Origin: Veterinaerplatzvirus T145P1
DNA length: 45,312 bases
Strand: one strand, 5' to 3'
Sequence record: OZ035786.1
Below, in pieces: positions 554 to 43,993 of the stretch (position 1 is its first letter; each line of letters opens with the position of its first letter). The translations under genes were made by a program, and so were the position numbers. The notes beneath the pieces are model-generated. The model did not search any database. It had not been told where the DNA came from and saw only the letters and a program-made list of their open reading frames with translations.

Positions 554-2119
554 ATGTCTTTAGTATGGGAAGAAATGACCATTCAGGAAAAGATGGCGGT
601 TAAGGCGATATCAGAACACAGCTTCGAGGGGTTTCTTCGCTGCTGGTTTTCAATAACGCAAGGCGAGCGATATATCCCTAACTGGCATCACAAATATCTA
701 TGCCGAATTATCGACGAGATTATTGCAGGTGAGCGCAAGGACACTATAATTAACATAGCGCCTGGTAGCGGGAAGACAGAGATCGCATCAATCCACTTCC
801 AGGCCTACTCGATGGTTAAGCTGAAGAAGGTGAGGAACCTTAACATCTCATTTGCTGACTCCCTGGTTAAGCGCAACTCTAAGCGCGTACGTGACCTTAT
901 CAAGTCTCAAGAATTTCAATCACTATGGCCTTGCAAGTTTGGCACATGCAAAGACGATGAACTTCAGGTTCTTGATGAGAGTGGCAGGGTTAGATTTGAG
1001 TCAATATCAAAGGCGGCTGGGGGTCAGATTACTGGTGCTCGAGGTGGTTATATAACAGAAACATATAGCGGAGCCGTTCTATTGGATGATTTTGACAAAC
1101 CCGCAGATATGCTTTCTCCGGTTTATCGAGCTAACAACCACGTAATGCTTAAGAACACAATTCGATCACGTCGCGCTAGCTCTGTAAAGGGAAAGGCAAC
1201 ACCAATTATCTCTATACAGCAGCGCCTGCACGTCAATGACTCAACCTGGTTCATGATGGAAGGCGGTATGGGCATCGAATTCGATTTAATTAAGATACCA
1301 GCGCTAGTTACCGATGATTACATCGATTCACTTCCTGACTGGATTAAAGATCAGTTTGCTGAGGACGTACTAAGCAGTGAATATATTGAGCGAGATGGAG
1401 TAAAGTACTACAGCTACTTTCCTAAAAAGGAATCCGTAAACGACCTGGTGGCAATGTGGGATAGTGACCCGTACACTTTCCTTAGCCAATATCAACAATG
1501 CCCAGTGGCTCTTGGCGGTAACCTGATTAACGTGGATTGGTTCCAGCGTCTTAGTGATACATTCAGGCCTCCAGCTAAGTACGATTACAGATTCATCACA
1601 TGCGATACTGCGATGACTACAAAGAGTTATAGTGACTTCTCCGTGCTTCAGTTATGGGGCTATAAGGATGCTAAGATTTACCTGATAGACCAGCGCAGGG
1701 GAAAATGGGAAGCACCAGAGTTGGAGGCTGAACTGCTGGACTTCGAGAAGAAATCAAGGGCAACCAGTCAGTCAGATGGTATCCTCAGAAGGATTATTAT
1801 CGAGAAGAAAGCGTCTGGTATCGGCCTGATTCAATCAGCTGGCAGGGTTATGCGAACACCGATAGAGCCATACGTACCGGATAACGACAAGCTGACTCGC
1901 GTAATGAGCGCATTGCCACAGATTAAGGCTGGTAATGTCGTTCTTCCAGAGTCTGCGCCGTGGCTAAACGGATTGCTTACTGAGGTTGCTGCTTTTACGG
2001 CAGATGATAGCCACAAACACGACGACCAGATTGACTGTCTAACTATGGCAATCAACCTGGTACTTAACATTGCGGACGACCCCAAAGCGCGACTAATGCG
2101 CATAGCGGGAATTAAATAG
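554..2119 (+). CDS. terL: terminase large subunit
   Basis: 521 aa; Walker A-like PGSGKTE near N-terminus, acidic nuclease-like C-terminal half (DDFDKP, DDQIDC); position after small subunit. Confidence 0.88.
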   Translation: MSLVWEEMTIQEKMAVKAISEHSFEGFLRCWFSITQGERYIPNWHHKYLCRIIDEIIAGERKDTIINIAPGSGKTEIASIHFQAYSMVKLKKVRNLNISFADSLVKRNSKRVRDLIKSQEFQSLWPCKFGTCKDDELQVLDESGRVRFESISKAAGGQITGARGGYITETYSGAVLLDDFDKPADMLSPVYRANNHVMLKNTIRSRRASSVKGKATPIISIQQRLHVNDSTWFMMEGGMGIEFDLIKIPALVTDDYIDSLPDWIKDQFAEDVLSSEYIERDGVKYYSYFPKKESVNDLVAMWDSDPYTFLSQYQQCPVALGGNLINVDWFQRLSDTFRPPAKYDYRFITCDTAMTTKSYSDFSVLQLWGYKDAKIYLIDQRRGKWEAPELEAELLDFEKKSRATSQSDGILRRIIIEKKASGIGLIQSAGRVMRTPIEPYVPDNDKLTRVMSALPQIKAGNVVLPESAPWLNGLLTEVAAFTADDSHKHDDQIDCLTMAINLVLNIADDPKARLMRIAGIK

Positions 2120-2159
2120 CACGAATTGCTAAACGCTAGAGCCACGGATGGCGTATAGT
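2116..2159 (+). promoter_or_regulatory. phage promoter family copy: TAGCA-N5-TGCTA palindrome, 22-bp spacer, TATAGT
   Basis: atagcacgaattgctaaa overlapping the terL stop codon, tatagtta 22 bp downstream; drives 2191..2565. Confidence 0.6.
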
Positions 2160-9292: not shown

Positions 9293-9336
9293 ATAGCACT
9301 TTTTGCTAAAGCGGTTATTCAACTTTGCTGTATAGT
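9293..9336 (+). promoter_or_regulatory. phage promoter family copy
   Basis: atagcactttttgctaaa, 22 bp, tatagtta, then cctcatcgaaacgaaa leader. Confidence 0.6.
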
Positions 9337-9369
9337 TACCTCATCGAAACGAAATGAGAGATTAAAGAA

Positions 9370-20549: not shown

Positions 20550-20594
20550 ATAATACAACCGTCAGTGCGGAATGTCTTTAGCTATTCGTGCTAT
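20550..20594 (-). promoter_or_regulatory. phage promoter family copy (minus strand)
   Basis: Reverse complement reads atagcacgaatagctaaag, 22 bp, tattat, then catcaaaacgaaac leader before the lipoprotein gene. Confidence 0.5.
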
Positions 20595-20690
20595 TGCATA
20601 CACGTAACCGATGTAACTCGATGTATACAATCTCATCCGCGGAAAATGATATACGCACTGTTACGCAAATTTACGCATTGGTTACATTAA

Positions 20691-20752
20691 AATATCTATA
20701 TATATCAACCTTTTACTCTTATTATTATTATATATATATTACTGTGTATATC
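20691..20752. repeat. AT-rich repeat block copy 1 (second copy near 39755)
   Basis: aatatctatatatatcaaccttttact-(TTA)n-tatatat-tactgtgtata; within a divergent intergenic region. Confidence 0.6.
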
Positions 20753-20851
20753 ATGTAACTACTTCTATAGAGTGTTCCGGTTATAATTTTAATATCATGT
20801 GGATTTATACAGTATTGCGCTGCAGCTATACCAATGCACCCTCAGCAATAA

Positions 20852-21250
20852 ATGATATACACGATATACACGATGGTTACATTGAGCTATAGCTGGGCCG
20901 AGATGCCAAAAAACGTAACTAGTGCCAATGCCTACACGGAATTACAAGGATTCACGCGTAAACTTAAATCAACGATTGGCAAAACCAATTGGACTGGTTA
21001 CGGTGCCGAATATATAGTTAACTCATCGAAAGCAAACAACCAGAGAGATACAGAAATGACCTACTACATTATCAAAGAGAAAAACAACGCACTGTTCGGT
21101 GATTGCTACTTTGGCGGCCCTGCTGGATATACCACAGATAAGAAAGAGGCTGACAGATTCGAGACTAAAGAAGAAGCCCGAGATGTGCTGACTGGTTACT
21201 TCACTGAAGAAGATTTGAAGTCTGTTAAAGTGGTTAAGGTTAAGGAATAA
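20852..21250 (+). CDS. hypothetical protein
   Basis: 132-aa ORF; first ATG lacks a clear SD and sits inside gatatacac repeats; in-frame ATGs at 20873 and 20903. Confidence 0.4.
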   Translation: MIYTIYTMVTLSYSWAEMPKNVTSANAYTELQGFTRKLKSTIGKTNWTGYGAEYIVNSSKANNQRDTEMTYYIIKEKNNALFGDCYFGGPAGYTTDKKEADRFETKEEARDVLTGYFTEEDLKSVKVVKVKE

Positions 21251-22879: not shown

Positions 22880-22924
22880 ATAGCATGAATTGCTAAAGAC
22901 AAAACTAAAGGGTGTGGGTATGAT
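22880..22924 (+). promoter_or_regulatory. phage promoter family copy
   Basis: atagcatgaattgctaaag abutting dam stop, tatgat about 23 bp downstream. Confidence 0.55.
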
Positions 22925-26706: not shown

Positions 26707-26725
26707 ATAGCACGAATTGCTAAAG
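26707..26725. promoter_or_regulatory. orphan copy of the TAGCA-N5-TGCTA palindrome (no TATAGT box downstream)
   Basis: atagcacgaattgctaaag in + orientation between primase terminator and tailspike start, both on minus strand. Confidence 0.5.
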
Positions 26726-26747
26726 TGGATTGTAGCATCTTTGAGTC

Positions 26748-26770: not shown

Positions 26771-27697
26771 TTAGTCTAGTAATTCGCTCGCCTTGTATAT
26801 TCGCTTTCTTATTCCTGATTTGAAGTGGTTATCATTATTTGGCATTACAACATCAAGATTGCGATCGTCAGCAACGGCGAGTAAATCAAAATCGCTGCGA
26901 GTACAAGCGATGCGTAACTTGTAGTTTCTAAGCGCGTAAGCAACCATTTCCATGTTGTAACTGGAGTGGCAAACAAGCACACAGCGGTTCCCAGTAGCAA
27001 TGTGAACGCGATAGCCATCAATGAAATTATCGACCAGATAAGCGTACTCATCATCCTTAAAGGAACCAATAACAGAAACAGACTGGCGAGAATAATCTTT
27101 TGCAGCATAACTAACATCTCCCTCCTCATTGATAAACATTACATTGCACATCTCTTCTGATATGCCGTCACTATAAGCCATAAAGCACGGAACTGCGTGG
27201 ATTAATTCACCTGATTTCGTCCTGCCAACATCAAAACCGAACTCGCTATAGATACCCTCGTATGTACTGAGAGGAGTTGATTCTACTCTTTCCGTCCTTT
27301 CCATTATCTCTAAGCATCTTTCGTGATCAATCTGAGCGCCCATTTTGTATGGTGATGTTCTTGAAGCTCTTTTGTTTGCTTTTGATATAACCTCTACTGG
27401 AACGAGATTCAGCCAATCACCAAGCGTATCTATTGTTTCACTATAACTCATTCCAGAACACTTCATTACCCAACCAACACCAGAATCATTTCCACACTGG
27501 TTGCATATTGCTGCGCCATTTCCCTTTTCTTGACCTAACTCATCAGTGAAGCGAAACCTATCCTTGCCAAAGCAGTAAGGGCACGGACCATGTTTCTTGC
27601 TGAGATTCTCCTTTGTCCATCCAAGATGCGATGAGTAGAACTCACTCCACATCCCTTTCATCTTGGCTATCACTTCGTTCTTATCATGGTGACTCAT
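26771..27697 (-). CDS. DNA primase (zinc-ribbon plus TOPRIM-like)
   Basis: Start moved to Met10 (SD ggaggt 4 nt upstream). CPYC...CNQC zinc-binding pair; acidic AVADDRNLD TOPRIM-like motif. Confidence 0.55.
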   Translation of the reverse strand: MSHHDKNEVIAKMKGMWSEFYSSHLGWTKENLSKKHGPCPYCFGKDRFRFTDELGQEKGNGAAICNQCGNDSGVGWVMKCSGMSYSETIDTLGDWLNLVPVEVISKANKRASRTSPYKMGAQIDHERCLEIMERTERVESTPLSTYEGIYSEFGFDVGRTKSGELIHAVPCFMAYSDGISEEMCNVMFINEEGDVSYAAKDYSRQSVSVIGSFKDDEYAYLVDNFIDGYRVHIATGNRCVLVCHSSYNMEMVAYALRNYKLRIACTRSDFDLLAVADDRNLDVVMPNNDNHFKSGIRKRIYKASELLD

Positions 27698-27752
27698 AAT
27701 TACCTCCATAAACAATAAAGGCACTATACATAATGCAAAGTGCCATTGTTTA

Positions 27753-28232
27753 TCAAATCGTGCTGTTTTGCTCTTTCTTCTTTTGGTTCTCTAATTTTAT
27801 CTTGCGCCATGAACGACACTCTGGCTTAGTGGCTAATTCAGCCTCAGTGACGACTCGCAGCATATGGCGCTTTTTGCACCGAAGTGTCAGCGGTTTCCCG
27901 TTGCCGTCGAATTGCAGGTCTGGTCGGCAGAATGTAGCGCGAAAACCTTCTCCATTTCGCTTATAGTAGTTGTGAGAAAGTTGAGCCCCACGCGCAGAAA
28001 TCATACCGCGCTTAAACCATTCTTCTACAGCCTGTGGTGTTACCTTTAACTGCTTTGCGATATTCGCCTTTGTGCCGAAGAAATCAAGAACTATCTCTAG
28101 CCGCGCGCGTAGCCCGGCTCTTACTTCATCTTTTAAAACATAGTAGCCTGAAGGTCGTTTACGTTGCTTTTTGTCTTCGGTGCGGATGGTTCCGTTATTG
28201 CCGTTAATTGTTCGCTTGTCGACTGTATTCAT
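27753..28232 (-). CDS. HTH DNA-binding protein (Cro/YdaS-like)
   Basis: Helix-turn-helix-like segment TKANIAKQLKVTPQAVEEWFKRG; basic termini; its SD overlaps a palindrome copy. Confidence 0.5.
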   Translation of the reverse strand: MNTVDKRTINGNNGTIRTEDKKQRKRPSGYYVLKDEVRAGLRARLEIVLDFFGTKANIAKQLKVTPQAVEEWFKRGMISARGAQLSHNYYKRNGEGFRATFCRPDLQFDGNGKPLTLRCKKRHMLRVVTEAELATKPECRSWRKIKLENQKKKEQNSTI

Positions 28233-28244
28233 TTCATTACCTCA

Positions 28245-28287
28245 ATAGCATTTTTTGTTAAAAGTCATCCTGATTTGATGGTATCAT
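28245..28287 (+). promoter_or_regulatory. phage promoter family variant upstream of helicase, overlapping the SD of the divergent HTH gene
   Basis: atagcattttttgttaaaa, then tatcat about 21 bp downstream. Confidence 0.45.
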
Positions 28288-28333
28288 TGTACTCAATTAA
28301 ACGCTACAAGACAATTTTTATAGGAATTTAGAT

Positions 28334-30328
28334 ATGTTGCCTATCGAGAAGCTGGTTGCAAATTTCGATAAAGAAAGAATCAAACAGATTCAGAAAGACT
28401 ATCAGTTTGGAGAGATAACCCCTTACGAATTCCAGTGCGTGACATTTGATGCAATCGGAAAGGCTATTGGCAAGTACGAGGCACCATTTATCGCAGACCT
28501 TTCAGTATCTGCGGGTAAGACAATCATTCTTGCCATGATTGGTAAGCGCATGGAGCAGCTTGGGCTTCCCTATATGGTTCTCTCTCGCCAGTCAGAGATT
28601 ATCAGCCAGAACTCAGAAGAGCTTCGTAATTTCGGCATACGTAATAGCGTCTATTGCGCTGGCCTTAACGTCAAATCAGTTTACTACCCAACTATAGTGG
28701 CCAGTGAGGGTACGGCAGCCAACGGCTTGTTTAAGGGGCTTGGTGACTATGTTCCGGCAGTTATCGCTATAGATGAGTGTCACATGGTCGATCACATGGA
28801 TATCGTGGAGGCTGAAGAGAATGAAGAAACATTTGAGCAAATGAGCACAAAGAAAGGCGATATGGTTTTTAAGGATGGCGTAAACACAGGATTGCTTGGT
28901 ACTGGTCGTGCGCAGTACACGCTAATTATCACCGAGATGAAACGTCGTTGTCGTGAGAAGTACGGGCGTGAGCTTCGTATATTCGGTCTTACTGGCAGCC
29001 CGTATCGTAACAACGATCATATCGTCGTTAGCAACCCAAACATCCGTGGATTCTGGCGCAAAACAGTGATTCAGGTGCCAACAAATTATCTGGTTGATTT
29101 GGGCTTCGTTGTTCCTACTGTTTATGGTGAAGTTGGTGACCTGGGTTATGACCTTAGTGAGTTTGCGCCAGACGGAAGCGATGGCGTTAAAGACTTCAGC
29201 AAGAAAGAAATGGATGCAATGGCTGCAAAGATTCACGACAACCAATCAATGACCCAAAAGATAATGGGTTTTGTTGTGAAAATACTCGAGACTCGTAACG
29301 CTGCATTGGTAACATGCGCTGGCAAACTCCATTGTGATGAGGCTGCTGCGGCACTACCAGATGGATACCCTTACGCCATCATCACAGACTCTACGGGAGA
29401 GAGGAAGCGCAGGGAGATTCTGGCTGATTGCCAGACAGGTAAGTACAAAATAATATTCCAGATTGGTTGTCTTACTACGGGCGTAAACCAGCCGCTGTGG
29501 GATACTAGCGTCATACTACGCAAGATTGGCAGCCTAACGCTTATGATTCAGCTTCTTGGTAGGGGGATGCGCAAACTTAAGAGATCTCATATTGATGCTG
29601 GTTTTCATAAAGAAGATCACCTTGTGCTGGATTTTGCTGGCGCACTTGATGATATGGCTGAGCTTTACTTTGACCCAATTATTGAAGAGATTCAGGCTGA
29701 GAAGTTTAAATCCTCAAGAAAAGGTGGCGATGAGGTTCGTCAGTGTCCGCAATGTGGATATGAAAATTCCCCATTCGCTCGTCGCTGTAGCAATAAGATT
29801 GATGGCGTTAGATGCGATCACTTCTTTCAGTTCACAATTTGCGAAGACATTACCGACGCGCAAACTAAATCGGTAATTAAAAAGGGTTGTGGCGCTCGCA
29901 ATGACATAGCAGCAAAGGTTTGCAGGGAATGCGGCGAGATGCTTAAAGACCCAAATGCTAACCTGACTGGCAAAATGTATCGTCGTGGTGATTACCTTCG
30001 TGTTTATGATTTTCAAGTTGGGTTAAGTAAGAATCAGACAGGCATTGTAGTTAAGTACAATATAATGGCTCATAACGGAGAGAGATTTAACGCTTGGGAG
30101 TTCTTTAATCCAGAATCAGACCATCGAGTTTGCAGTGTGCTCTGGAAGAACTTTTGCTTAGCTCATATTGAGAATCGCACGGAAGCGGCACGAATTGGCA
30201 GGCTTAAAAATGCCAGAATGATTATGACTAACGTAGATAAGTTCCGTGCGCCAGTTCAGGTTACGCATCGCCGGAATGCAAAAGGAAAGGACGTGATAGC
30301 GTTTAAGAATTTTGGAGAATTATTATGA
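28334..30328 (+). CDS. superfamily 2 DNA helicase with C-terminal zinc-ribbon motifs
   Basis: Walker A SVSAGKT, DExH box IAIDECH, motif VI-like LLGRGMRK; CPQCGYEN...CRECGEM pairs near C-terminus. Confidence 0.8.
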   Translation: MLPIEKLVANFDKERIKQIQKDYQFGEITPYEFQCVTFDAIGKAIGKYEAPFIADLSVSAGKTIILAMIGKRMEQLGLPYMVLSRQSEIISQNSEELRNFGIRNSVYCAGLNVKSVYYPTIVASEGTAANGLFKGLGDYVPAVIAIDECHMVDHMDIVEAEENEETFEQMSTKKGDMVFKDGVNTGLLGTGRAQYTLIITEMKRRCREKYGRELRIFGLTGSPYRNNDHIVVSNPNIRGFWRKTVIQVPTNYLVDLGFVVPTVYGEVGDLGYDLSEFAPDGSDGVKDFSKKEMDAMAAKIHDNQSMTQKIMGFVVKILETRNAALVTCAGKLHCDEAAAALPDGYPYAIITDSTGERKRREILADCQTGKYKIIFQIGCLTTGVNQPLWDTSVILRKIGSLTLMIQLLGRGMRKLKRSHIDAGFHKEDHLVLDFAGALDDMAELYFDPIIEEIQAEKFKSSRKGGDEVRQCPQCGYENSPFARRCSNKIDGVRCDHFFQFTICEDITDAQTKSVIKKGCGARNDIAAKVCRECGEMLKDPNANLTGKMYRRGDYLRVYDFQVGLSKNQTGIVVKYNIMAHNGERFNAWEFFNPESDHRVCSVLWKNFCLAHIENRTEAARIGRLKNARMIMTNVDKFRAPVQVTHRRNAKGKDVIAFKNFGELL

Positions 30329-30744
30329 AGATTACAGATAAAGAAGATTACATTGAGTTTTACCCGGGTCCGGTTAAGTCATGCCCTAAAGAGGATGACG
30401 AACAAATCTTTTGCTCTGATTGGGTTAAGTATAACTACCCAGATATGGTATTTTTCCATTGCGTGAATGAGGGAAAGAAAACCATTGGTCAAGCAAGAAA
30501 AGACCAGGCTAAGGGGCTTCTAAAAGGCGTATCAGACTGTATGTTTCTTATTCCTGAATCACTTCGAGGTAAGTATCCTTTCGGAGCTATAGAGCTAAAG
30601 AGGGCTGGCAAAACTCAAGCAAGTCCAGTCAGCGAAGAACAGAAAGCATTCCTGAAAAGTGTAATGGAATCAGGCGGTTTCTCGGCAGTCGCCTACGGAC
30701 GTGAGGGTTTTCTTGCAGCATTCAAAGAAATGATTTCAAAATAG
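30325..30744 (+). CDS. VRR-NUC domain nuclease (putative)
   Basis: ATG overlaps helicase stop (ATGA); GVSDCMFL...GAIELKRAGK resembles the D...E-x-K core of VRR-NUC. Confidence 0.5.
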   Translation: MKITDKEDYIEFYPGPVKSCPKEDDEQIFCSDWVKYNYPDMVFFHCVNEGKKTIGQARKDQAKGLLKGVSDCMFLIPESLRGKYPFGAIELKRAGKTQASPVSEEQKAFLKSVMESGGFSAVAYGREGFLAAFKEMISK

Positions 30745-30784
30745 CACGAATTGCTAAAGGCGATTTTAAAAGATGGGGTATAGT
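30741..30784 (+). promoter_or_regulatory. phage promoter family copy
   Basis: atagcacgaattgctaaa with TAG stop inside, 22 bp, tatagtta, ccatcgaaacgaaa leader. Confidence 0.6.
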
Positions 30785-30820
30785 TACTCCATCGAAACGA
30801 AACACAAAGAGAGAAATAAA

Positions 30821-31594: not shown

Positions 31595-31785
31595 TTAATG
31601 CAACTTGTGTAAAAGCAAATGGTTTCTTTACTCTACTTGAAGATTACGAAATTATCTTTAATTCAGATGGCGCAATAACAGTATTGAGCGATAATGGATG
31701 CTATTGGTTCGTTAGTTATCAAGGTGACGGGTATTACGGGTGTAGAGATTCGAATGGAAAAGAAGTTAGCTTCTTAGTTGAATAG
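31591..31785 (+). CDS. hypothetical protein
   Basis: 64-aa ORF, ATGA overlap upstream, stop inside next promoter motif. Confidence 0.45.
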   Translation: MINATCVKANGFFTLLEDYEIIFNSDGAITVLSDNGCYWFVSYQGDGYYGCRDSNGKEVSFLVE

Positions 31786-31825
31786 CACTTTTTGTTAAAA
31801 CTCAAATCCACGTATGGATTATATT
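31782..31825 (+). promoter_or_regulatory. phage promoter family copy (variant)
   Basis: atagcactttttgttaaaa, 22 bp, tatatt. Confidence 0.5.
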
Positions 31826-31855: not shown

Positions 31856-31981
31856 ATGAAAATTGTAGACAGAGAGATGTTTGAGATCGCACAGATATAC
31901 GCAAATGATGCTGTAAAAACTGGCTCTGATTATTGCTGGATGTGCGCTAAAGAATACCTGAAAATGGCCTACGGCTTATGA
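31856..31981 (+). CDS. hypothetical small protein
   Basis: 41-aa ORF (MKIVDREMFEIAQIY...), SD aagag, stop overlaps next ATG. Confidence 0.3.
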   Translation: MKIVDREMFEIAQIYANDAVKTGSDYCWMCAKEYLKMAYGL

Positions 31982-32226
31982 TAGTTGAAACTGGGCGAGC
32001 GGCAGTATGGGCGCATTGTGGAGAGGCTGGATTGCAAGATGACATTAAGCAGATATCCCGCTTCTTTGAAATAAAAGATATCAGTGTTGTCTTTAATGGT
32101 AAATTCTCATACATGGATGAGCGACCAAGAAAATACGTAAGAGTTAAGCCAGGTGTCAGGATTAATGTTAATGAATTCCTTAAATCTGAGGGATTCAAGT
32201 TTAAGATAACGAAGCCTAAGGATTAA
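31978..32226 (+). CDS. hypothetical protein
   Basis: 82-aa ORF from the track. Confidence 0.5.
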   Translation: MIVETGRAAVWAHCGEAGLQDDIKQISRFFEIKDISVVFNGKFSYMDERPRKYVRVKPGVRINVNEFLKSEGFKFKITKPKD

Positions 32227-32563: not shown

Positions 32564-33694
32564 ATGGCAACAGCAAAAATCACCAACGAACAATTGCGCG
32601 AAGAGTTAGCAAACGGCATGACCAACAAGGCAATCGCAGAGAAGTACGGAATGAACATTCGCAACGTTGAATTGCGTCGCAGTAAATTAGCTAAACAAGG
32701 CGAAGGGCATGGTCGCGATGTAAGCAACTTAATCCCTCAGGGCTATGCAGTTAAAGGCGTCTCCAGCTTAATTGGTGCTGATGGCGAGATTAAGCAACAG
32801 TGGGTTAAATCAGATATCGACAAGGAGAAGCAAGAAGAGATGATGCTTCAGGCAATTCAGGCCCTAACTGATGAGTTGCCGCGTGAGAAAGCTAAAGCTT
32901 TAAGGGTTGGTTTATGGGAAGATACTTTAAGCCTTTACCCCGTGTTCGACCTCCACATTGGAGCAATGGCTCATCATGCTGAGTGTGGTGAGAACTATAG
33001 TACTGAAATCGCTGAGAGAGTTCTTAATGATTACTTTGATTACGCGGTTGCAAAGGCCCCCAACTCCAAGAAAGCTGTATTGCTGATTGGGGGTGACTTC
33101 CTTCACTCTGACGGAATGGAAGCGGTAACACCAACCAGTTGTCATGTTCTTGATCAAGATAGCCGTTATCACAAACTTGTTTACGTAGCAGTGCGATCGA
33201 CACGTCGAGCAATTAGCCGCATGCTTGATAAGCACGCCGAGGTTGAGGTTCAGATTATTCCAGGTAACCACGATCTCTCAGGTATGATTTGGCTTCGTGC
33301 TGCAATGGCAGCTTTCTATATGGATGAGCCTCGAGTTAATGTTGATGCGTCCCCCGCTGCGCTTCACGTAACGCAATTTGGGAAGACGCTGCTTGGTTAC
33401 TGCCATGGGCACGAACTCAAAAAGCCTGATACCCGACTATCAGCACTGGCTCGTGACCATCGCAAAGCATTTGGTGAATCAGAGTATGTTTACACCCATT
33501 CAGGCCACTATCACCATCAAACTATTACGGAAGGAAATCTGGGTATTGATGAATCACACGGCCAGCTTGGAGCGAAAGATGCGTACAGTGCTAACGGAGG
33601 TTATCGCTCTTACCGACAGGCTTCGGTGATAATTTATAGTCCTGAGTTTGGTGAGATTGGACGATTTACTTGCCGCCCGGAAATGTTTAGTTAA
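32564..33694 (+). CDS. HTH domain fused to calcineurin-like metallophosphoesterase
   Basis: N-terminal HTH-like TNKAIAEKYGMNIRNVELRRSKL; phosphoesterase motifs DLH, GGDFLH, GNHD, CHGHE, HSGHYHH in order. Confidence 0.6.
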   Translation: MATAKITNEQLREELANGMTNKAIAEKYGMNIRNVELRRSKLAKQGEGHGRDVSNLIPQGYAVKGVSSLIGADGEIKQQWVKSDIDKEKQEEMMLQAIQALTDELPREKAKALRVGLWEDTLSLYPVFDLHIGAMAHHAECGENYSTEIAERVLNDYFDYAVAKAPNSKKAVLLIGGDFLHSDGMEAVTPTSCHVLDQDSRYHKLVYVAVRSTRRAISRMLDKHAEVEVQIIPGNHDLSGMIWLRAAMAAFYMDEPRVNVDASPAALHVTQFGKTLLGYCHGHELKKPDTRLSALARDHRKAFGESEYVYTHSGHYHHQTITEGNLGIDESHGQLGAKDAYSANGGYRSYRQASVIIYSPEFGEIGRFTCRPEMFS

Positions 33695-33737
33695 TAGCAC
33701 TTTTTGCCTAACGCATGCCGTAGAAATGCGGCATAAT
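33694..33737 (+). promoter_or_regulatory. phage promoter family copy (variant with hairpin in spacer)
   Basis: atagcactttttgcctaa, 22-bp spacer containing atgccg/cggcat inverted repeat, cataat, cacatcgaaacgag leader. Confidence 0.5.
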
Positions 33738-34788: not shown

Positions 34789-35153
34789 TAATGTGCGTAG
34801 CTTTATCTGGATGTTCGGCAACTGATGCACTGACTGGATTGATTGGAAGCAAGCCGGAAGTTACAGCTCAGGTCGGGGCTGAGAACAACAAGGTTGGCGT
34901 TGGGTTAACGAATAAGGTCGATTCCAGCAGCTCCAGTGAAGCCACGGTTAAAGATTCTAAAGTTGGGTCACTTGATAGCTCAAGCGGGAAAAAGACTGCT
35001 GACAACTCGATTAAGGCATCTACAATCACTGCCGAAAAGATTGAGATTACCAACAACGACTCATCCGCGCCTCCATGGATTGTAATGGGAGCTATGGGGT
35101 TGCTGTTTTTTGTTCCACTTACCGCAATCTTAAGACGCAAAAAAGCCTCCTAA
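34764..35153 (+). CDS. unimolecular spanin (lipoprotein signal plus C-terminal transmembrane helix)
   Basis: Lipobox ALSGCS at N-terminus, Ser-rich linker, C-terminal WIVMGAMGLLFFVPLTAIL then RRKK; overlaps endolysin end. Confidence 0.65.
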   Translation: MFKRIAALVMCVALSGCSATDALTGLIGSKPEVTAQVGAENNKVGVGLTNKVDSSSSSEATVKDSKVGSLDSSSGKKTADNSIKASTITAEKIEITNNDSSAPPWIVMGAMGLLFFVPLTAILRRKKAS

Positions 35154-35595: not shown

Positions 35596-37179
35596 TCACC
35601 CCAGCAATCTCGGATTAATGTAAACTTTATCACCAATCAGGCACGTATAGTTTTTCTCATCAAGCATTGGCAGTAAGTGATCTTTAATCTTCGTCATCAC
35701 TCCAGCCTGAGCCTCGAACGGCTTAACCTTTCGCGCCGCTTCATACAATGAGCGAATGCCAACAACACCCTTACCGTTTTTACCCTGCTTGATCAGGATA
35801 TCAATCAGCTTATTCATCTCGGCATTGTCGCCAGCGTGACCAGCCGCGTTGGCAGATGACAAATAAGTCTTGCTAAGCTCCTGGAACATTATTACAGCTT
35901 CTTGCATGGTATCAAGCTCAATCTCTCTGGATTTCTGTGGACTCCCACCGCTAGGGTTGAACCAGTTGCGCACTGTGTGAAGAACAGCAGCAATCCTGAT
36001 AGCCTGCTTATCGAATTTACCCAGCGCGCCGCGCAACATTGTGTGGGAATACTTACCGCCGTCCGCAAGGTGCGGCTCCATTTCCTGACGTGCCCGGTTT
36101 AGATATTTCATCGCTGAGTTGCTAACCGTCAACTTTACTTCTTGCTCATTCATGATTTCGTGAACCAGGCGGAAGTAGTTAGCCTTAAGCTCACCATCAA
36201 TTGGCTCGTAAGTTGAGTTGCCATTCTCATCGACGAATACACGCTCGCCAAGGAATGATTTTTCACGCACAAGTAGAAAACGTTCCGACACACCAATACC
36301 ACGAGCACCAGCATTCATGATTGCGTTTATTGTCTCATCTTGCGCAATTACAGAGATGCATCCCATAGCGACGAAGCTCATGTTGTTTTCTGCGTTCGCA
36401 CGCGCAATGGACACGTTACCAGCATCCCACGCCTTGAGTACGAGCTCGCTGTTCGTTTTCTTTGAGCCATCACCATAGGTCATACCTAGCAGAGAGTTCA
36501 CGCTCGTTGCTTCATCAGAGATAACCGCGAAGTTGCCCTGGCGGTTGTTTATTCGCGCAAGACCTTCAGGCGTCGTATCTGATACTGGAAATACGATATC
36601 GCACATCTTTTCCAGCTTCTCCTCTAAATCCTCTTTCTCCTCAAAGAGAGACGCCATCTCTGATGGTGACTTTTCCTGCTTCATCTCTTTGGATAATGCA
36701 GACAGCTTTGCCATAATCTTTTTACGCTCACGCTTTCGCACTTCATTAAGCCGCTCAGTCTCAGCAATCATTGGCGCAATAGAAAGCGAGTTAATTGCTG
36801 ATTTACCTGTGGATGGTGGCTGACTGGTTACTACGTATAGAGAGGTCGGTTGCTGGGTTCCGTGATACTCTACTGTAAAACGTCCCAGCATGGCGGCAGA
36901 AATACACCCCAGAAAGTGCATATAAGCTGAAGACTCTGGAAATTGAACAGAACGGGCAATATTGGCTGACAGCTTACCAACAACATCAATGTCATTACCG
37001 AGTGAGATTACGGGATACTTGTCATTAGCCGCATCAATCTCAACTGGCGCTTTCCAGAATGATTGAGACTGACGATATCCATTGGCATTAATAGCGACGC
37101 GCAGGGGTGGGAGGTTGTCTGCGGCAGCAATTGCCATAACCTGTTCAACAGATAGCTTATCTTCGTTGAAATCAAACAT
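35596..37179 (-). CDS. hypothetical protein with P-loop-like motif (possible replication-associated NTPase)
   Basis: 527 aa, SD ggagag; PPSTGKS Walker A-like motif; Lys/Glu-rich central linker. Confidence 0.5.
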   Translation of the reverse strand: MFDFNEDKLSVEQVMAIAAADNLPPLRVAINANGYRQSQSFWKAPVEIDAANDKYPVISLGNDIDVVGKLSANIARSVQFPESSAYMHFLGCISAAMLGRFTVEYHGTQQPTSLYVVTSQPPSTGKSAINSLSIAPMIAETERLNEVRKRERKKIMAKLSALSKEMKQEKSPSEMASLFEEKEDLEEKLEKMCDIVFPVSDTTPEGLARINNRQGNFAVISDEATSVNSLLGMTYGDGSKKTNSELVLKAWDAGNVSIARANAENNMSFVAMGCISVIAQDETINAIMNAGARGIGVSERFLLVREKSFLGERVFVDENGNSTYEPIDGELKANYFRLVHEIMNEQEVKLTVSNSAMKYLNRARQEMEPHLADGGKYSHTMLRGALGKFDKQAIRIAAVLHTVRNWFNPSGGSPQKSREIELDTMQEAVIMFQELSKTYLSSANAAGHAGDNAEMNKLIDILIKQGKNGKGVVGIRSLYEAARKVKPFEAQAGVMTKIKDHLLPMLDEKNYTCLIGDKVYINPRLLG

Positions 37180-37365
37180 TACTTCTCTCCGTGTTGTTTC
37201 TGAGCGGCCATTATAACAACGACCGCTTATAAAGCATTATCAATTTGTGCTATTAATTGTTCTTAATCCACTTTAGACACATCCACAATCCAGCCCCATA
37301 GAATGCAATCTTGAGAACTTCAGCTAAGACAAGGATAATAAAGTATCCACCACCAAGTAAATCAA

Positions 37366-37991: not shown

Positions 37992-38035
37992 ACTATACAG
38001 GAAAAGCCCCGAATGGCTTTAGCGATTAGTGCTAT
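37992..38035 (-). promoter_or_regulatory. phage promoter family copy (minus strand)
   Basis: Reverse complement reads atagcactaatcgctaaag, 22 bp, tatagtta, tcccatcgaaacgaaaga leader. Confidence 0.55.
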
Positions 38036-39425: not shown

Positions 39426-39470
39426 AGTATACGCATAGTTAGCCACACTGTCTTTAGCAAAAAGTGCTAT
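39426..39470 (-). promoter_or_regulatory. phage promoter family copy (minus strand) with roughly 200-nt leader
   Basis: Reverse complement reads atagcactttttgctaaag, about 22 bp, tatact, then ctcatcgacacgg. Confidence 0.5.
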
Positions 39471-40099: not shown

Positions 40100-40648
40100 A
40101 TGCAGAAAGTAACACTAGGTGAAGTTATCCGTGAGATGGTGCGCAACGCGATGGTGTCCGAGAGTGGTGAGTTTAAAGTTCCGGTTAGCCAGATATTCAA
40201 ACTGGTTCGAGGCAAGGAATACCCTGAAATGGTGTATGACGAAGAGACTAGTGAGATCCTCAACCTGGCAGATAGGGCGATGCCGGAACTAAAGAACTCA
40301 TACATCTATAACACAGTGTCGAGAATGACAGAGCTTCGCGATGCTAATAAGCGAGCGAGATATAAGTTCATCTGGATTGATGATGACGGAGAGCAAACAA
40401 GGCCCGGTAGCTTCGACGGTGATGGCGCTGATAAATACCTGGTCATATACATTGAGAACGGCGCGCACTGGACTGGGAGTCGCGAAAAGAAAAAGCAGGA
40501 AGCGGAGAAAGAGGCGGCTATCATTGAAAAGTTCAAGTCTAGACTGCTCAAGCTGTCACCAAGTGTTGCTGGCTTGGAAGGTGAAGAACTTAAGGGCGCT
40601 GTTACAATGATTAATGCTTATCAGGAAATGATTAAGGAGACTAAGTAG
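40100..40648 (+). CDS. hypothetical protein
   Basis: 182-aa ORF, SD gagg; Lys/Glu-rich C-terminus. Confidence 0.6.
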   Translation: MQKVTLGEVIREMVRNAMVSESGEFKVPVSQIFKLVRGKEYPEMVYDEETSEILNLADRAMPELKNSYIYNTVSRMTELRDANKRARYKFIWIDDDGEQTRPGSFDGDGADKYLVIYIENGAHWTGSREKKKQEAEKEAAIIEKFKSRLLKLSPSVAGLEGEELKGAVTMINAYQEMIKETK

Positions 40649-40738: not shown

Positions 40739-40782
40739 ATAGCACTTTTTGCCTAACGCGGTAATGCCATGGATGGCATAAT
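40739..40782 (+). promoter_or_regulatory. phage promoter family copy (variant with hairpin in spacer)
   Basis: atagcactttttgcctaa, spacer with atgcca/tggcat inverted repeat, cataat, cctcatcgaaacgag leader. Confidence 0.5.
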
Positions 40783-40820: not shown

Positions 40821-41039
40821 ATGAGCAAGGTAATCACACTGCAATGCCTTAAGACAAATAACCCAGAGTTCTTAAAAGGTCACAAATATGTGGCAACCCT
40901 GGTGGATGGGAAAACATGGGCGGTTAAGGGTGGATTCCAGGATTACAAATTCCCACTTGAGCACATACCTGGCGGAAACCTTGGTTTTGTTAGTGACTGC
41001 CGCTCAGTTAAGTTTGTTTTTGAGGTTGTAATGAAATAG
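40821..41039 (+). CDS. hypothetical protein
   Basis: 72-aa ORF, stop inside next promoter motif. Confidence 0.5.
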   Translation: MSKVITLQCLKTNNPEFLKGHKYVATLVDGKTWAVKGGFQDYKFPLEHIPGGNLGFVSDCRSVKFVFEVVMK

Positions 41040-41079
41040 CAATAATTGCTAAATCTTCCGCAAGGCCATTTGATATAGT
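41036..41079 (+). promoter_or_regulatory. phage promoter family copy
   Basis: atagcaataattgctaaa, 22 bp, tatagt embedded in aaggcca/tggcctt inverted repeat. Confidence 0.55.
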
Positions 41080-41802: not shown

Positions 41803-42059
41803 AACGTTTAATGAAATGCATGACTATTATTGCGGCAATGATTGCTCTTACTGGTTGCGAGAAGGCACCTGAGGTTCAGATTCAGTCAGGTGAATTCAAT
41901 GTGGAGCGCCTATTCACAGTGGATGGATGTACCGCCTACCGATTCCGAGATAGCGATAGAGCCATCTACTACACAAATTGCAATGGCAGTACGCAGAGTG
42001 AGTACAGGCACGGCAGGGCCATGAGACAAGAAACAGTTCAGACAGATCGCACTAATTGA
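41799..42059 (+). CDS. lipoprotein (early region)
   Basis: Signal peptide with lipobox IALTGCE; 86 aa with 4 further Cys. Confidence 0.5.
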   Translation: MKRLMKCMTIIAAMIALTGCEKAPEVQIQSGEFNVERLFTVDGCTAYRFRDSDRAIYYTNCNGSTQSEYRHGRAMRQETVQTDRTN

Positions 42060-42242
42060 TAAAAGGGGATCCATCCTGACTGGTATAATCCCCAGCATCA
42101 ACCACATGAATGGAAGTTAAGTGACGATATACGAACATAAATTCAGTAGCAGGGGTATTGATATGCTCCTGCGCTATGTAGACGAAAAATACGCAAATCT
42201 CATGCTTAAGACGCATGGCGGCACAATAACGAGGATTGAGAT

Positions 42243-42572: not shown

Positions 42573-42616
42573 ATAGCACGAATTGCTAAACCCGCTCCTG
42601 CGGGTTTTGTTATAGT
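42573..42616 (+). promoter_or_regulatory. phage promoter family copy with terminator hairpin in the spacer
   Basis: atagcacgaattgctaaa, spacer contains cccgc-tcct-gcggg followed by ttttgtt, then tatagtta. Confidence 0.55.
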
Positions 42617-42952: not shown

Positions 42953-43086
42953 TTTACATCCACACGTACTACACTGGTAAGTTTAATAGCGTCAAACATG
43001 TCCGTGTTCACGATAACTACGAGAGCGCAAAAGCTCAATGGTTGGTTCTTGGTGGTGACATTAATTCATACAGAGTTGCTGAGTAG
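42949..43086 (+). CDS. hypothetical small protein
   Basis: 45-aa ORF ([15 protein letters not shown]...), ATGA overlap upstream, TAG stop inside next promoter motif. Confidence 0.35.
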   Translation: MIYIHTYYTGKFNSVKHVRVHDNYESAKAQWLVLGGDINSYRVAE

Positions 43087-43126
43087 CACTAATTGCTAAA
43101 ACAGTATTGGGGTAATTTGTTATAGT
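43083..43126 (+). promoter_or_regulatory. phage promoter family copy
   Basis: gtagcactaattgctaaaa, 22 bp, tatagtta, ccccatcgaaacgagagagg leader. Confidence 0.55.
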
Positions 43127-43156
43127 TACCCCATCGAAACGAGAGAGGAATAAGAA

Positions 43157-43823: not shown

Positions 43824-43953
43824 ATATGTTATCGCATGTGAACGACTGGTCTTTGATATGAAGACTTTTCACTGGTTCATAATTAAGGATTTAGTTAAGC
43901 CTTATAAGAAAGGTGTTATGCCAGAGCAGTTTGTTAAGTCGTTCTACAAATAG
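43810..43953 (+). CDS. hypothetical small protein
   Basis: 47-aa ORF (MSFTEYVIACERLVFDMKTFHW...), TAG stop inside next promoter motif. Confidence 0.3.
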   Translation: MSFTEYVIACERLVFDMKTFHWFIIKDLVKPYKKGVMPEQFVKSFYK

Positions 43954-43993
43954 CACGAATTGATAAACCAGATCGCCACGGATGGCATATAAT
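43950..43993 (+). promoter_or_regulatory. phage promoter family copy (variant)
   Basis: atagcacgaattgataaa, spacer with gcca/tggc inverted repeat, TATAAT. Confidence 0.55.

Follow-up and report, generated by a model that had tools for sequence, protein, structure and literature searches.

The DNA of Veterinaerplatzvirus T145P1 (OZ035786.1), analysed here as one window of 45,312 nucleotides (nt), carries a gene for a small helix-turn-helix (HTH) protein, pir, and a divergently oriented helicase gene, and the gap between them holds one copy of a family of repeats with the form TAGCA-N5-TGCTA. Which protein reads this element, and for which of the two genes? The original prediction named the HTH protein encoded next to it as the cognate factor of a palindrome family, an assignment that is probably wrong. 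The answer favoured here, with a probability of roughly 0.58, is that the element is the upstream activator site of a class II marbox-type promoter of the helicase gene, read by a host protein and interlocked with the promoter of pir. The features of the locus are the following.

27753..28232, minus strand: pir-like HTH regulator gene (159 amino acids), orthologue of T1 Orf23/Pir; ATG at 28232-28230, read from the sequence
28240..28243, minus strand: pir Shine-Dalgarno sequence GAGG (cctc on the plus strand), read from the sequence
28245..28264, plus strand: 20-bp marbox-like element ATAGCATTTTTTGTTAAAAG, containing the 15-mer 28246-28260; forward with respect to the helicase gene; predicted centre at about -40
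28282..28287, plus strand: predicted helicase -10 box TATCAT with TG upstream, 17 bp past the 20-bp box; predicted start near 28294
28286..28291, minus strand: predicted pir -10 box TACAAT, overlapping the helicase -10 box by 2 bp; predicted start near 28279
28309..28314, minus strand: predicted pir -35 box TTGTCT, from a promoter scan
28334..30328, plus strand: helicase gene; Shine-Dalgarno sequence AGGA at 28322-28325; Helicase_C and ResIII matches; annotated as DNA helicase in MN840485

The window comes from a T1-like siphovirus (Drexlerviridae, Braunvirinae, genus Veterinaerplatzvirus) to which Escherichia phage 2725-N35 is 99% identical, and it shares with T1 the local gene order, in which primase follows pir on one strand and the helicase gene points away from both. 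Several database records that are near-identical to these coliphages bear Campylobacter, Pseudomonas, Stutzerimonas or Vibrio phage labels, which calls for caution on hosts.

The copy under study is the 15-mer TAGCATTTTTTGTTA at 28246-28260, an imperfect palindrome (TAGCA / TGTTA, one mismatch) with half-site symmetry at four of five positions. Its TAGCA half-site starts 13 nt upstream of the pir ATG, as had been stated, and the T1 counterpart, at 36445-36459, is a perfect palindrome that likewise lies 13 nt from the pir ATG. The claimed overlap with the Shine-Dalgarno sequence does not hold for the 15-mer, from which two bases (28244-28245) separate it; the repeat reaches it only in its extended form of 20-21 nt, and for a DNA-binding protein such an overlap is irrelevant anyway. 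Towards the helicase gene, the predicted -10 box follows 21 nt after the 15-mer and the ATG at 28334 lies 73 nt from its end. In most of the 17 diverse T1-like lineages examined, and clearly in T1, this copy is kept in position and orientation.

A directional promoter element

The repeat family exceeds chance by far: the window contains nine perfect TAGCA-N5-TGCTA palindromes, where 0.04 are expected, and 17 with one mismatch allowed, where 1.8 are expected. To this extent the palindrome proposal stands, while the copy next to pir is imperfect, is absent among the nine perfect ones and is admitted only with the one mismatch. When the copies are aligned together with their flanks, the pattern proves directional and not dyadic, and reads aaaTAGCACnnnTTGCTAaa, 22 nt, TATAGTTAC, a conserved leader (cATCGAAACGA) and the gene start. 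The composite of element and -10 box at fixed spacing occurs 19 times in the window, against 1.0 expected in shuffles, and T1 shows the same architecture about 20 times. A -10 box at the family spacing follows 18 of the 19 window copies, the exception being the one at 26707-26726, and no conserved -35 box at 17 bp from the -10 box was seen among the aligned window copies. The element itself is a 20-bp asymmetric sequence with the consensus A-T-A-G-C-A-C-n-n-W-T-T-G-Y-T-A-A-A-a-n, separated from the -10 box by 18 bp of free sequence in the family and by 17 bp at the copy next to pir. In a weight matrix built from 380 instances, symmetry is weak at positions 4/14 and fails at 7/11 and 1/17 (both flanks being A-rich); the right half-site is TTGTTA in many lineages, and the AAA flank together with C7 and T11 breaks what symmetry there is. 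That the element heads the helicase promoter, as had been proposed, holds as a prediction, with TATCAT and its upstream TG at the family's place.

The family in the window is the published 21-nt repeat of T1, TLS and Rtp, aaATAGCACnnnTTGnTAAAA, which heads most T1-like transcription units and has been seen in several genome papers. The 2024 re-annotation of TLS found this direct repeat at 21 places, running along transcription about 76 nt before start codons, divided it into A, T and G spacer classes, noted it also in T1, Rtp and Rogue1, and left its function open between stoperator, enhancer site and UP element (PMC11447400). Positions 28243-28263 of the window (caATAGCATTTTTTGTTAAAA) depart from the published repeat at one core position (C to T in GCAC), and the copy next to pir agrees with it in sequence, intergenic site, orientation with the downstream gene and distance to the start codon.

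The composite promoter also occurs outside the T1-like phages. An exact-pattern scan of viral contigs led to two P22-like podoviruses from other genera, Escherichia phages Skarpretter and C130_2, which carry 10 and nine composite promoters, respectively, against about 0.25 expected. In both, primase and helicase genes are adjacent with no pir between them, and no Pir homologue was found in either phage (tblastn E > 0.7; best family-profile match E 0.61). Each of them has a T1-like replication and recombination module with the promoter family, and promoters of this type are present throughout their structural genes as well.

A marbox-like element in place of the -35 box

What kind of protein would read an asymmetric element centred near -40 of promoters that have a good -10 box and no -35 box? 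The marbox is defined as 5'-gcannwwntgnnaaa-3', an oriented, non-palindromic site, and a class II promoter as one in which a forward marbox overlaps the -35 region with its centre between -36 and -55 (PMC12052159). In the structure of RamA with RNA polymerase, the micF site lies at about -41 and has the sequence CACT-7X-AAA (PMC8811837). Perfect matches to GCANNWWNTGNNAAA number 15 in the window, against 0.92 expected, and the copy next to pir (28248-28262) matches gcannwwntgnnaaa with no mismatch. Measured against an older marbox consensus, AYnGCACnnWnnRYYAAAYn, which reportedly goes back to Martin and colleagues in 1999, this copy has two mismatches (C7 and Y19) and the family consensus 0-1. 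Conservation in the 380-instance matrix falls on A1, Y2, G4, C5, A6, C7, W10, R13, Y14, Y15 and A16-18, the specified positions of that older consensus, from which the matrix departs in a misfit at position 19 and in the additional conservation of A3, T11 and T12.

The host's own sites have the same build. In Escherichia coli K-12, 15-16 of the 20 positions of the mar marbox ATGCCACGTTTTGCTAAATC agree with the phage T-class element. In micF, ACAGCACTGAATGTCAAAAC is followed by 18 bp and TAGAAT, a -10 box whose last base lies 7 nt ahead of the annotated start of the RNA; the spacing from a forward marbox to the -10 box is likewise 18 bp in nfo and inaA and probably about 17 bp in fumC. The element next to pir is likewise forward, centred at about -40 from the predicted transcription start, and at a -10 distance like those of micF, nfo and inaA.

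This class II marbox sequence, orientation and -10 distance make a host marbox protein the most likely reader of the element, and the neighbouring phage HTH protein a less likely one. Sequence match, geometry, conservation and phyletic pattern, all observed, point to an activator of the MarA, SoxS or Rob type as the probable candidate. Rob is the abundant, constitutive marbox protein, and it is redundant with MarA and SoxS. Bound at about -41, the monomeric, two-HTH proteins MarA, SoxS or Rob (RamA in Klebsiella) would touch region 4 of sigma-70 and the C-terminal domain of the polymerase alpha subunit and so recruit RNA polymerase, and the helicase promoter would be one of about 18 promoters of the same type that organise the transcription of the phage. 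A phage-encoded protein of the AraC/MarA family was rejected as the reader, since no homologue is encoded in the window, in Skarpretter or in C130_2. T1 promoters of this type have been assayed in phage-free E. coli, and one of them, Porf65, is independent of Pir (PMC6737242).

It is conceivable, though we put it somewhat below even odds, that the T1-like siphoviruses, together with Skarpretter and C130_2 as podoviruses of unrelated capsid, have put nearly all their promoters under host MarA/SoxS/Rob through near-optimal class II marboxes, with Pir as a separate modulator whose own gene is toggled by one of these.

Predicted divergent promoters with overlapping -10 boxes

How would occupancy of the element affect pir itself? 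On the pir strand, the promoter scan returned TTGTCT-17-TACAAT (9/12 matches). The best sigma-70 promoter on that strand (9-11/12) has its -10 box over that of the helicase promoter in 16 of 17 diverse lineages, the exception being lineage L073, where the best match lies elsewhere. The overlapping boxes often read TATAAT and TATTAT on opposite strands, and the pir strand of T1 reads TTGAAT-17-TATAAT. We infer from this arrangement a conventional, activator-independent sigma-70 promoter for pir and a -35-less, marbox-dependent promoter for the helicase gene. As the two -10 boxes share bases, one box on each strand, the two promoters could not be occupied by polymerase simultaneously: pir would be transcribed as long as the activator is absent, and would be off when activator and polymerase are at the helicase promoter. 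Counted from the predicted pir start, the marbox covers about +16 to +35, so occupancy of the marbox promoter should shut pir off.

Autoregulation by the HTH protein, as originally predicted, is probably right by orthology, as T1 Pir represses its own promoter in reporters (PMC6737242). In the window, this negative autoregulation would add to the predicted promoter competition, and the promoter interlock may in turn contribute to the self-repression of the T1 Ppir fragment, which contains both promoters. An RNA hairpin or other RNA element was rejected: Rfam gave no match in 27600-28500, and the pir leader folds no better than shuffled sequence (z +0.61).

Evidence that weighs against host recognition

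Several points stand against a host marbox protein as the reader. In open-access text, no paper was found that links the marbox, Rob, MarA or SoxS to T1-like phages, and one member of the phage family is reported from Vibrio. In unstressed cells there is little MarA or SoxS, and most Rob is sequestered and inactive, which would make sole dependence on them odd for a lytic phage that grows fast and has about 20 sites in each genome copy. DUF7334, a small-protein family that might supply a phage-encoded reader, has members in the window and in T1, Vc1, Skarpretter and C130_2. T1 Pir activates Pdam and represses Ppir, both of which contain the motif, so action of Pir at some copies is possible. 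Finally, no alternative operator for Pir offers itself in the form of another dyad, there being no inverted repeat of at least 6 nt in the window's intergenic region.

A phage factor or the polymerase itself

The alternative that survives best, though still unlikely, is that the element is read by some other phage factor common to the motif-bearing phages, or by RNA polymerase itself as a UP-like element or a displaced -35 box, the resemblance to the marbox then being convergence or mimicry. DUF7334 is the only shared non-enzymatic candidate for such a factor.

31978..32226, plus strand: DUF7334 / phrog_2817 protein, about 80 amino acids; in T1 at 40236-40511, unannotated there

In addition to its presence in motif-bearing phages with and without pir, the family appears confined to contigs sized like the genomes of those phages, but its own gene lies behind a promoter of this type, and its confident AlphaFold2 (AF2) model matched no known fold, on which ground it was rejected as a DNA binder. 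For the polymerase, it can be said that the TLS authors themselves raised an enhancer or UP element and that TTGnTA resembles a -35 hexamer; against it, the gap of 22 nt between TTGnTA and the -10 box is incompatible with recognition of a -35 box by sigma-70 under established promoter rules, and the element contains GC and is not A/T-rich as a UP element would be. For the same reason of spacing, TTGCTA was rejected as an ordinary -35 box. Any phage factor would, moreover, leave the exact marbox match and the 18-bp geometry to coincidence.

Does Pir read the element?

The HTH gene at 27753..28232 is, as had been proposed, a real regulator with a Cro fold. Its product is 52% identical to T1 ST23 (Orf23/Pir; E 3e-46), matches P22_Cro/YdaS in Pfam weakly and PHROG 2856 ('transcriptional regulator') with an E value of 7e-83, and its AF2 model (pLDDT 89.4) has 25 disordered N-terminal residues, an HTH at 55-75 and a C-terminal extension. 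In T1, Orf23 was named Pir, for 'prophage induction regulator'; in green fluorescent protein (GFP) reporters it raises the activity of Phol and Pdam and lowers that of PrecE and of its own promoter, Porf65 being independent of it, while T1 Orf65 represses pir and activates itself (PMC6737242). With this identity and the same synteny, negative autoregulation is predicted for the window protein too, by orthology with T1 Pir.

Could a Pir dimer then bind TAGCA-N5-TGCTA genome-wide, activate from about -42 as lambda cI does at PRM, and repress its own divergent promoter here? We consider this improbable, more so than the alternatives of the preceding section. Cro proteins bind dyads as dimers, the 10-bp spacing of the half-sites suits such a dimer, the copy next to pir keeps its place throughout the family, and the N-terminal arm of Pir, itself invariant, could read an invariant site. 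Yet the motif is invariant in all Pir-bearing lineages, including the distant Vc1 and a Logan contig, whereas the recognition helix is hypervariable: helix 3 reads TPQAVEEW, SNQTVQGW, SNSLLTIW, SHATLYEW, TTKVVTGW, NPLEYREM and others, even the Q and W being replaced. Skarpretter and C130_2 carry the motif without Pir, the Pir family being small and confined to T1-like phages, and the TTGTTA half-site, the AAA flank and C7/T11 undo the symmetry that a dimer would need. The marks of a Cro- or cI-type dimer operator were not found: neither full two-fold symmetry, which this copy has at four of five positions and the family matrix lacks, nor co-occurrence of site and regulator, nor a recognition helix conserved or co-varying with the site. 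The invariant residues of the Pir family lie in the N-terminal arm (DKRxxNGNNGTxRGxDKKxRKRP) and in the C-terminal part. Residues 5-28 (28149-28220, minus strand) form a basic, disordered, G/N-rich arm, the most conserved part of the protein and invariant even in its most distant homologues.

The published responses of T1 promoters do not coincide with the motif either. Mapping the reporter fragments onto the T1 genome, and scoring each for the motif, gave the following.

Pdam: motif present; activated by Pir
Ppir: motif present; repressed by Pir
Porf65: motif present as a perfect copy; no response to Pir
Phol: motif absent; activated by Pir
PrecE: motif absent; repressed by Pir

Thus a perfect copy is indifferent to Pir, and two fragments respond without any copy. 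Asymmetric motif, variable recognition helix, motif-bearing phages without Pir, mismatched T1 responses and the fit to the marbox together tell against the HTH protein as cognate factor of the family. No informative k-mer is shared by the four Pir-responsive T1 fragments. In T1 only, a significant repeat brackets the -10 box (AACGTTTAC / GTAAACGTT, reached by three of 200 shuffles), and it was rejected as the Pir operator for being confined to T1 and not enriched genome-wide. T1 Orf65, whose responses fit a reader of the element (it activates Porf65 and represses Ppir), was rejected because the window has no homologue.

Stoperators and other readings

The least probable of the alternatives is a stoperator or roadblock function, in which the copies, like such sites in mycobacteriophage L5, would silence transcription or bring it to an end, a possibility suggested by the TLS authors and favoured by the location of our element inside the pir leader and by the copy without a -10 box, between a terminator and the tail-fibre start here and also kept in T1, but opposed by the fixed-spacing -10 box, conserved leader and gene start that follow 18 of the 19 copies, by their intergenic sites at promoter positions and not within operons, and by the virulence of a phage without an L5-type repressor; it fits only that orphan copy. 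Two further readings were discarded: a sigma-54 promoter (TGGCAC-N5-TTGC), since the element lacks the GG, has a spacing too short by 2 nt and precedes a sigma-70 -10 box; and a T4 MotA box, for which the position is wrong.

Other members of the family

Two members of the family near the locus have features of their own.

27747..27766, minus strand: primase promoter element ACAGCACGATTTGATAAACA, running across the final four pir codons and the pir stop; followed by 18 bp and TATAGT (27728-27723); predicted start near 27716
26707..26726, plus strand: orphan copy ATAGCACGAATTGCTAAAGT, lacking a -10 box at the usual distance; primase terminator on one side, tail-fibre start on the other

The primase promoter element contains a previously unlisted perfect marbox match (27763-27749, minus strand). 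Because this element overlaps the 3' end of pir, pir is bracketed by two family elements, and forms a single-gene unit between them. The orphan copy runs against its flanking genes and is kept in T1 at 34903-34917. Just upstream of it, the minus strand carries TACAAT, so that the orphan could act as a roadblock on tail-fibre transcription. The remaining members are these.

2116..2135, plus strand: family member, then TATAGT (pattern scan)
9293..9312, plus strand: family member, then TATAGT (pattern scan)
20575..20594, minus strand: family member, then TATTAT (pattern scan)
22880..22899, plus strand: family member, then TATGAT (pattern scan)
30741..30760, plus strand: family member, then TATAGT (pattern scan)
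31782..31801, plus strand: family member, then TATATT, upstream of the DUF7334 gene
33694..33713, plus strand: family member, then CATAAT, upstream of the holin region
37234..37253, minus strand: family member, then TATAAT (pattern scan)
38016..38035, minus strand: family member, then TATAGT (pattern scan)
39451..39470, minus strand: family member, then TATACT (pattern scan)
40739..40758, plus strand: family member, then CATAAT (found by the marbox scan)
41036..41055, plus strand: family member, then TATAGT (pattern scan)
42046..42065, plus strand: family member, then TATAAT (found by the marbox scan)
42573..42592, plus strand: family member, then TATAGT (pattern scan)
43083..43102, plus strand: family member, then TATAGT (pattern scan)
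43950..43969, plus strand: family member, then TATAAT (pattern scan)

By their central triplet, the copies fall into a GAA class (2117, 20579, 22881, 26708, 30742, 42574 and 43951), a TTT class (9294, 28246, 31783 and 39455, joined in the marbox scan by 33697 and 40742) and a TAA/AAA class (37238, 38020, 41037 and 43084); the copy next to pir belongs to the TTT class in almost all lineages examined. At several promoters (among them 9340-9352, 30787-30800 and 43130-43142), and also in T1 and C130_2, an initial transcribed sequence c-ATCGAAACGA-a lies past TATAGTTAC.

Upstream of the recE homologue, at about 20600-21010, the window has a long non-coding stretch with iteron-like GTAAC/GTTAC and GATATAC repeats and an AT-rich (TA)n core, which may be an origin or a regulatory array. 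In the equivalent place of T1 (29930-30270), seven of 24 TGTAAC/GTTACA sites lie within 335 bp. In T1, PrecE is a promoter that Pir represses.

What host recognition would mean

Recognition as a marbox gives a concrete and cheap hypothesis for a repeat whose function still stood open in 2024. If it is true, transcription of these phages would depend on, and be tuned by, Rob (activated by bile salts), MarA (induced by salicylate and antibiotics) and SoxS (induced by oxidative stress), and many virulent coliphages, as well as Klebsiella phages in therapy collections, would be coupled to the regulators of intrinsic multidrug resistance. Phage-antibiotic synergy and the behaviour of such phages in bile would be concerned, as would the annotation of promoters in hundreds of genomes. 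Whatever the reader proves to be, the Pir operator should not be assumed to be this repeat.

Comparison with known systems

Among known systems, the nearest in sequence is the repeat of TLS, T1, Rtp and Rogue1, which is the same element in the same orientation, at a similar distance from the start codon and with the same A, T and G spacer classes; unlike the present analysis, the TLS paper tied it neither to a -10 box at fixed spacing nor to the marbox (PMC11447400). T1 Pir, the orthologue of the window's HTH protein, acts in reporters on its own promoter and on other phage promoters, a set of targets that does not match the distribution of the motif. The class II promoters of the mar/sox/rob regulon (micF, nfo and inaA) share with the phage promoters an asymmetric GCAC, 7 bp, AAA site that is forward, lies 17-18 bp from the -10 box and overlaps a missing -35 box with its centre near -41. 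The phage promoters differ from them in belonging to a virulent phage with about 18-20 such promoters per genome, in lying nearer to the consensus than the host's own sites, and in conserving A3, T11, T12 and a transcribed leader as well; activator binding at them is a prediction.

The middle promoters of T4 are likewise a phage-wide class with a good -10 box and a conserved upstream box in place of the -35 box. In T4, the MotA box has its centre at -30 and works only with two phage proteins, MotA and AsiA, whereas here the box lies at about -40 and no phage activator of the MarA type was found. In its logic, the locus resembles the lambda OR region, where cI at OR2 (-42) activates PRM and represses PR: in both, one site in a short intergenic region between divergent genes would switch polymerase between back-to-back promoters, and an activator at about -42 would replace a poor -35 box. 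Unlike in lambda, it is the replication gene whose promoter would be activated, the regulator gene having one that needs no activator; the -10 boxes overlap; and the asymmetric site would probably be bound by a monomeric host protein.
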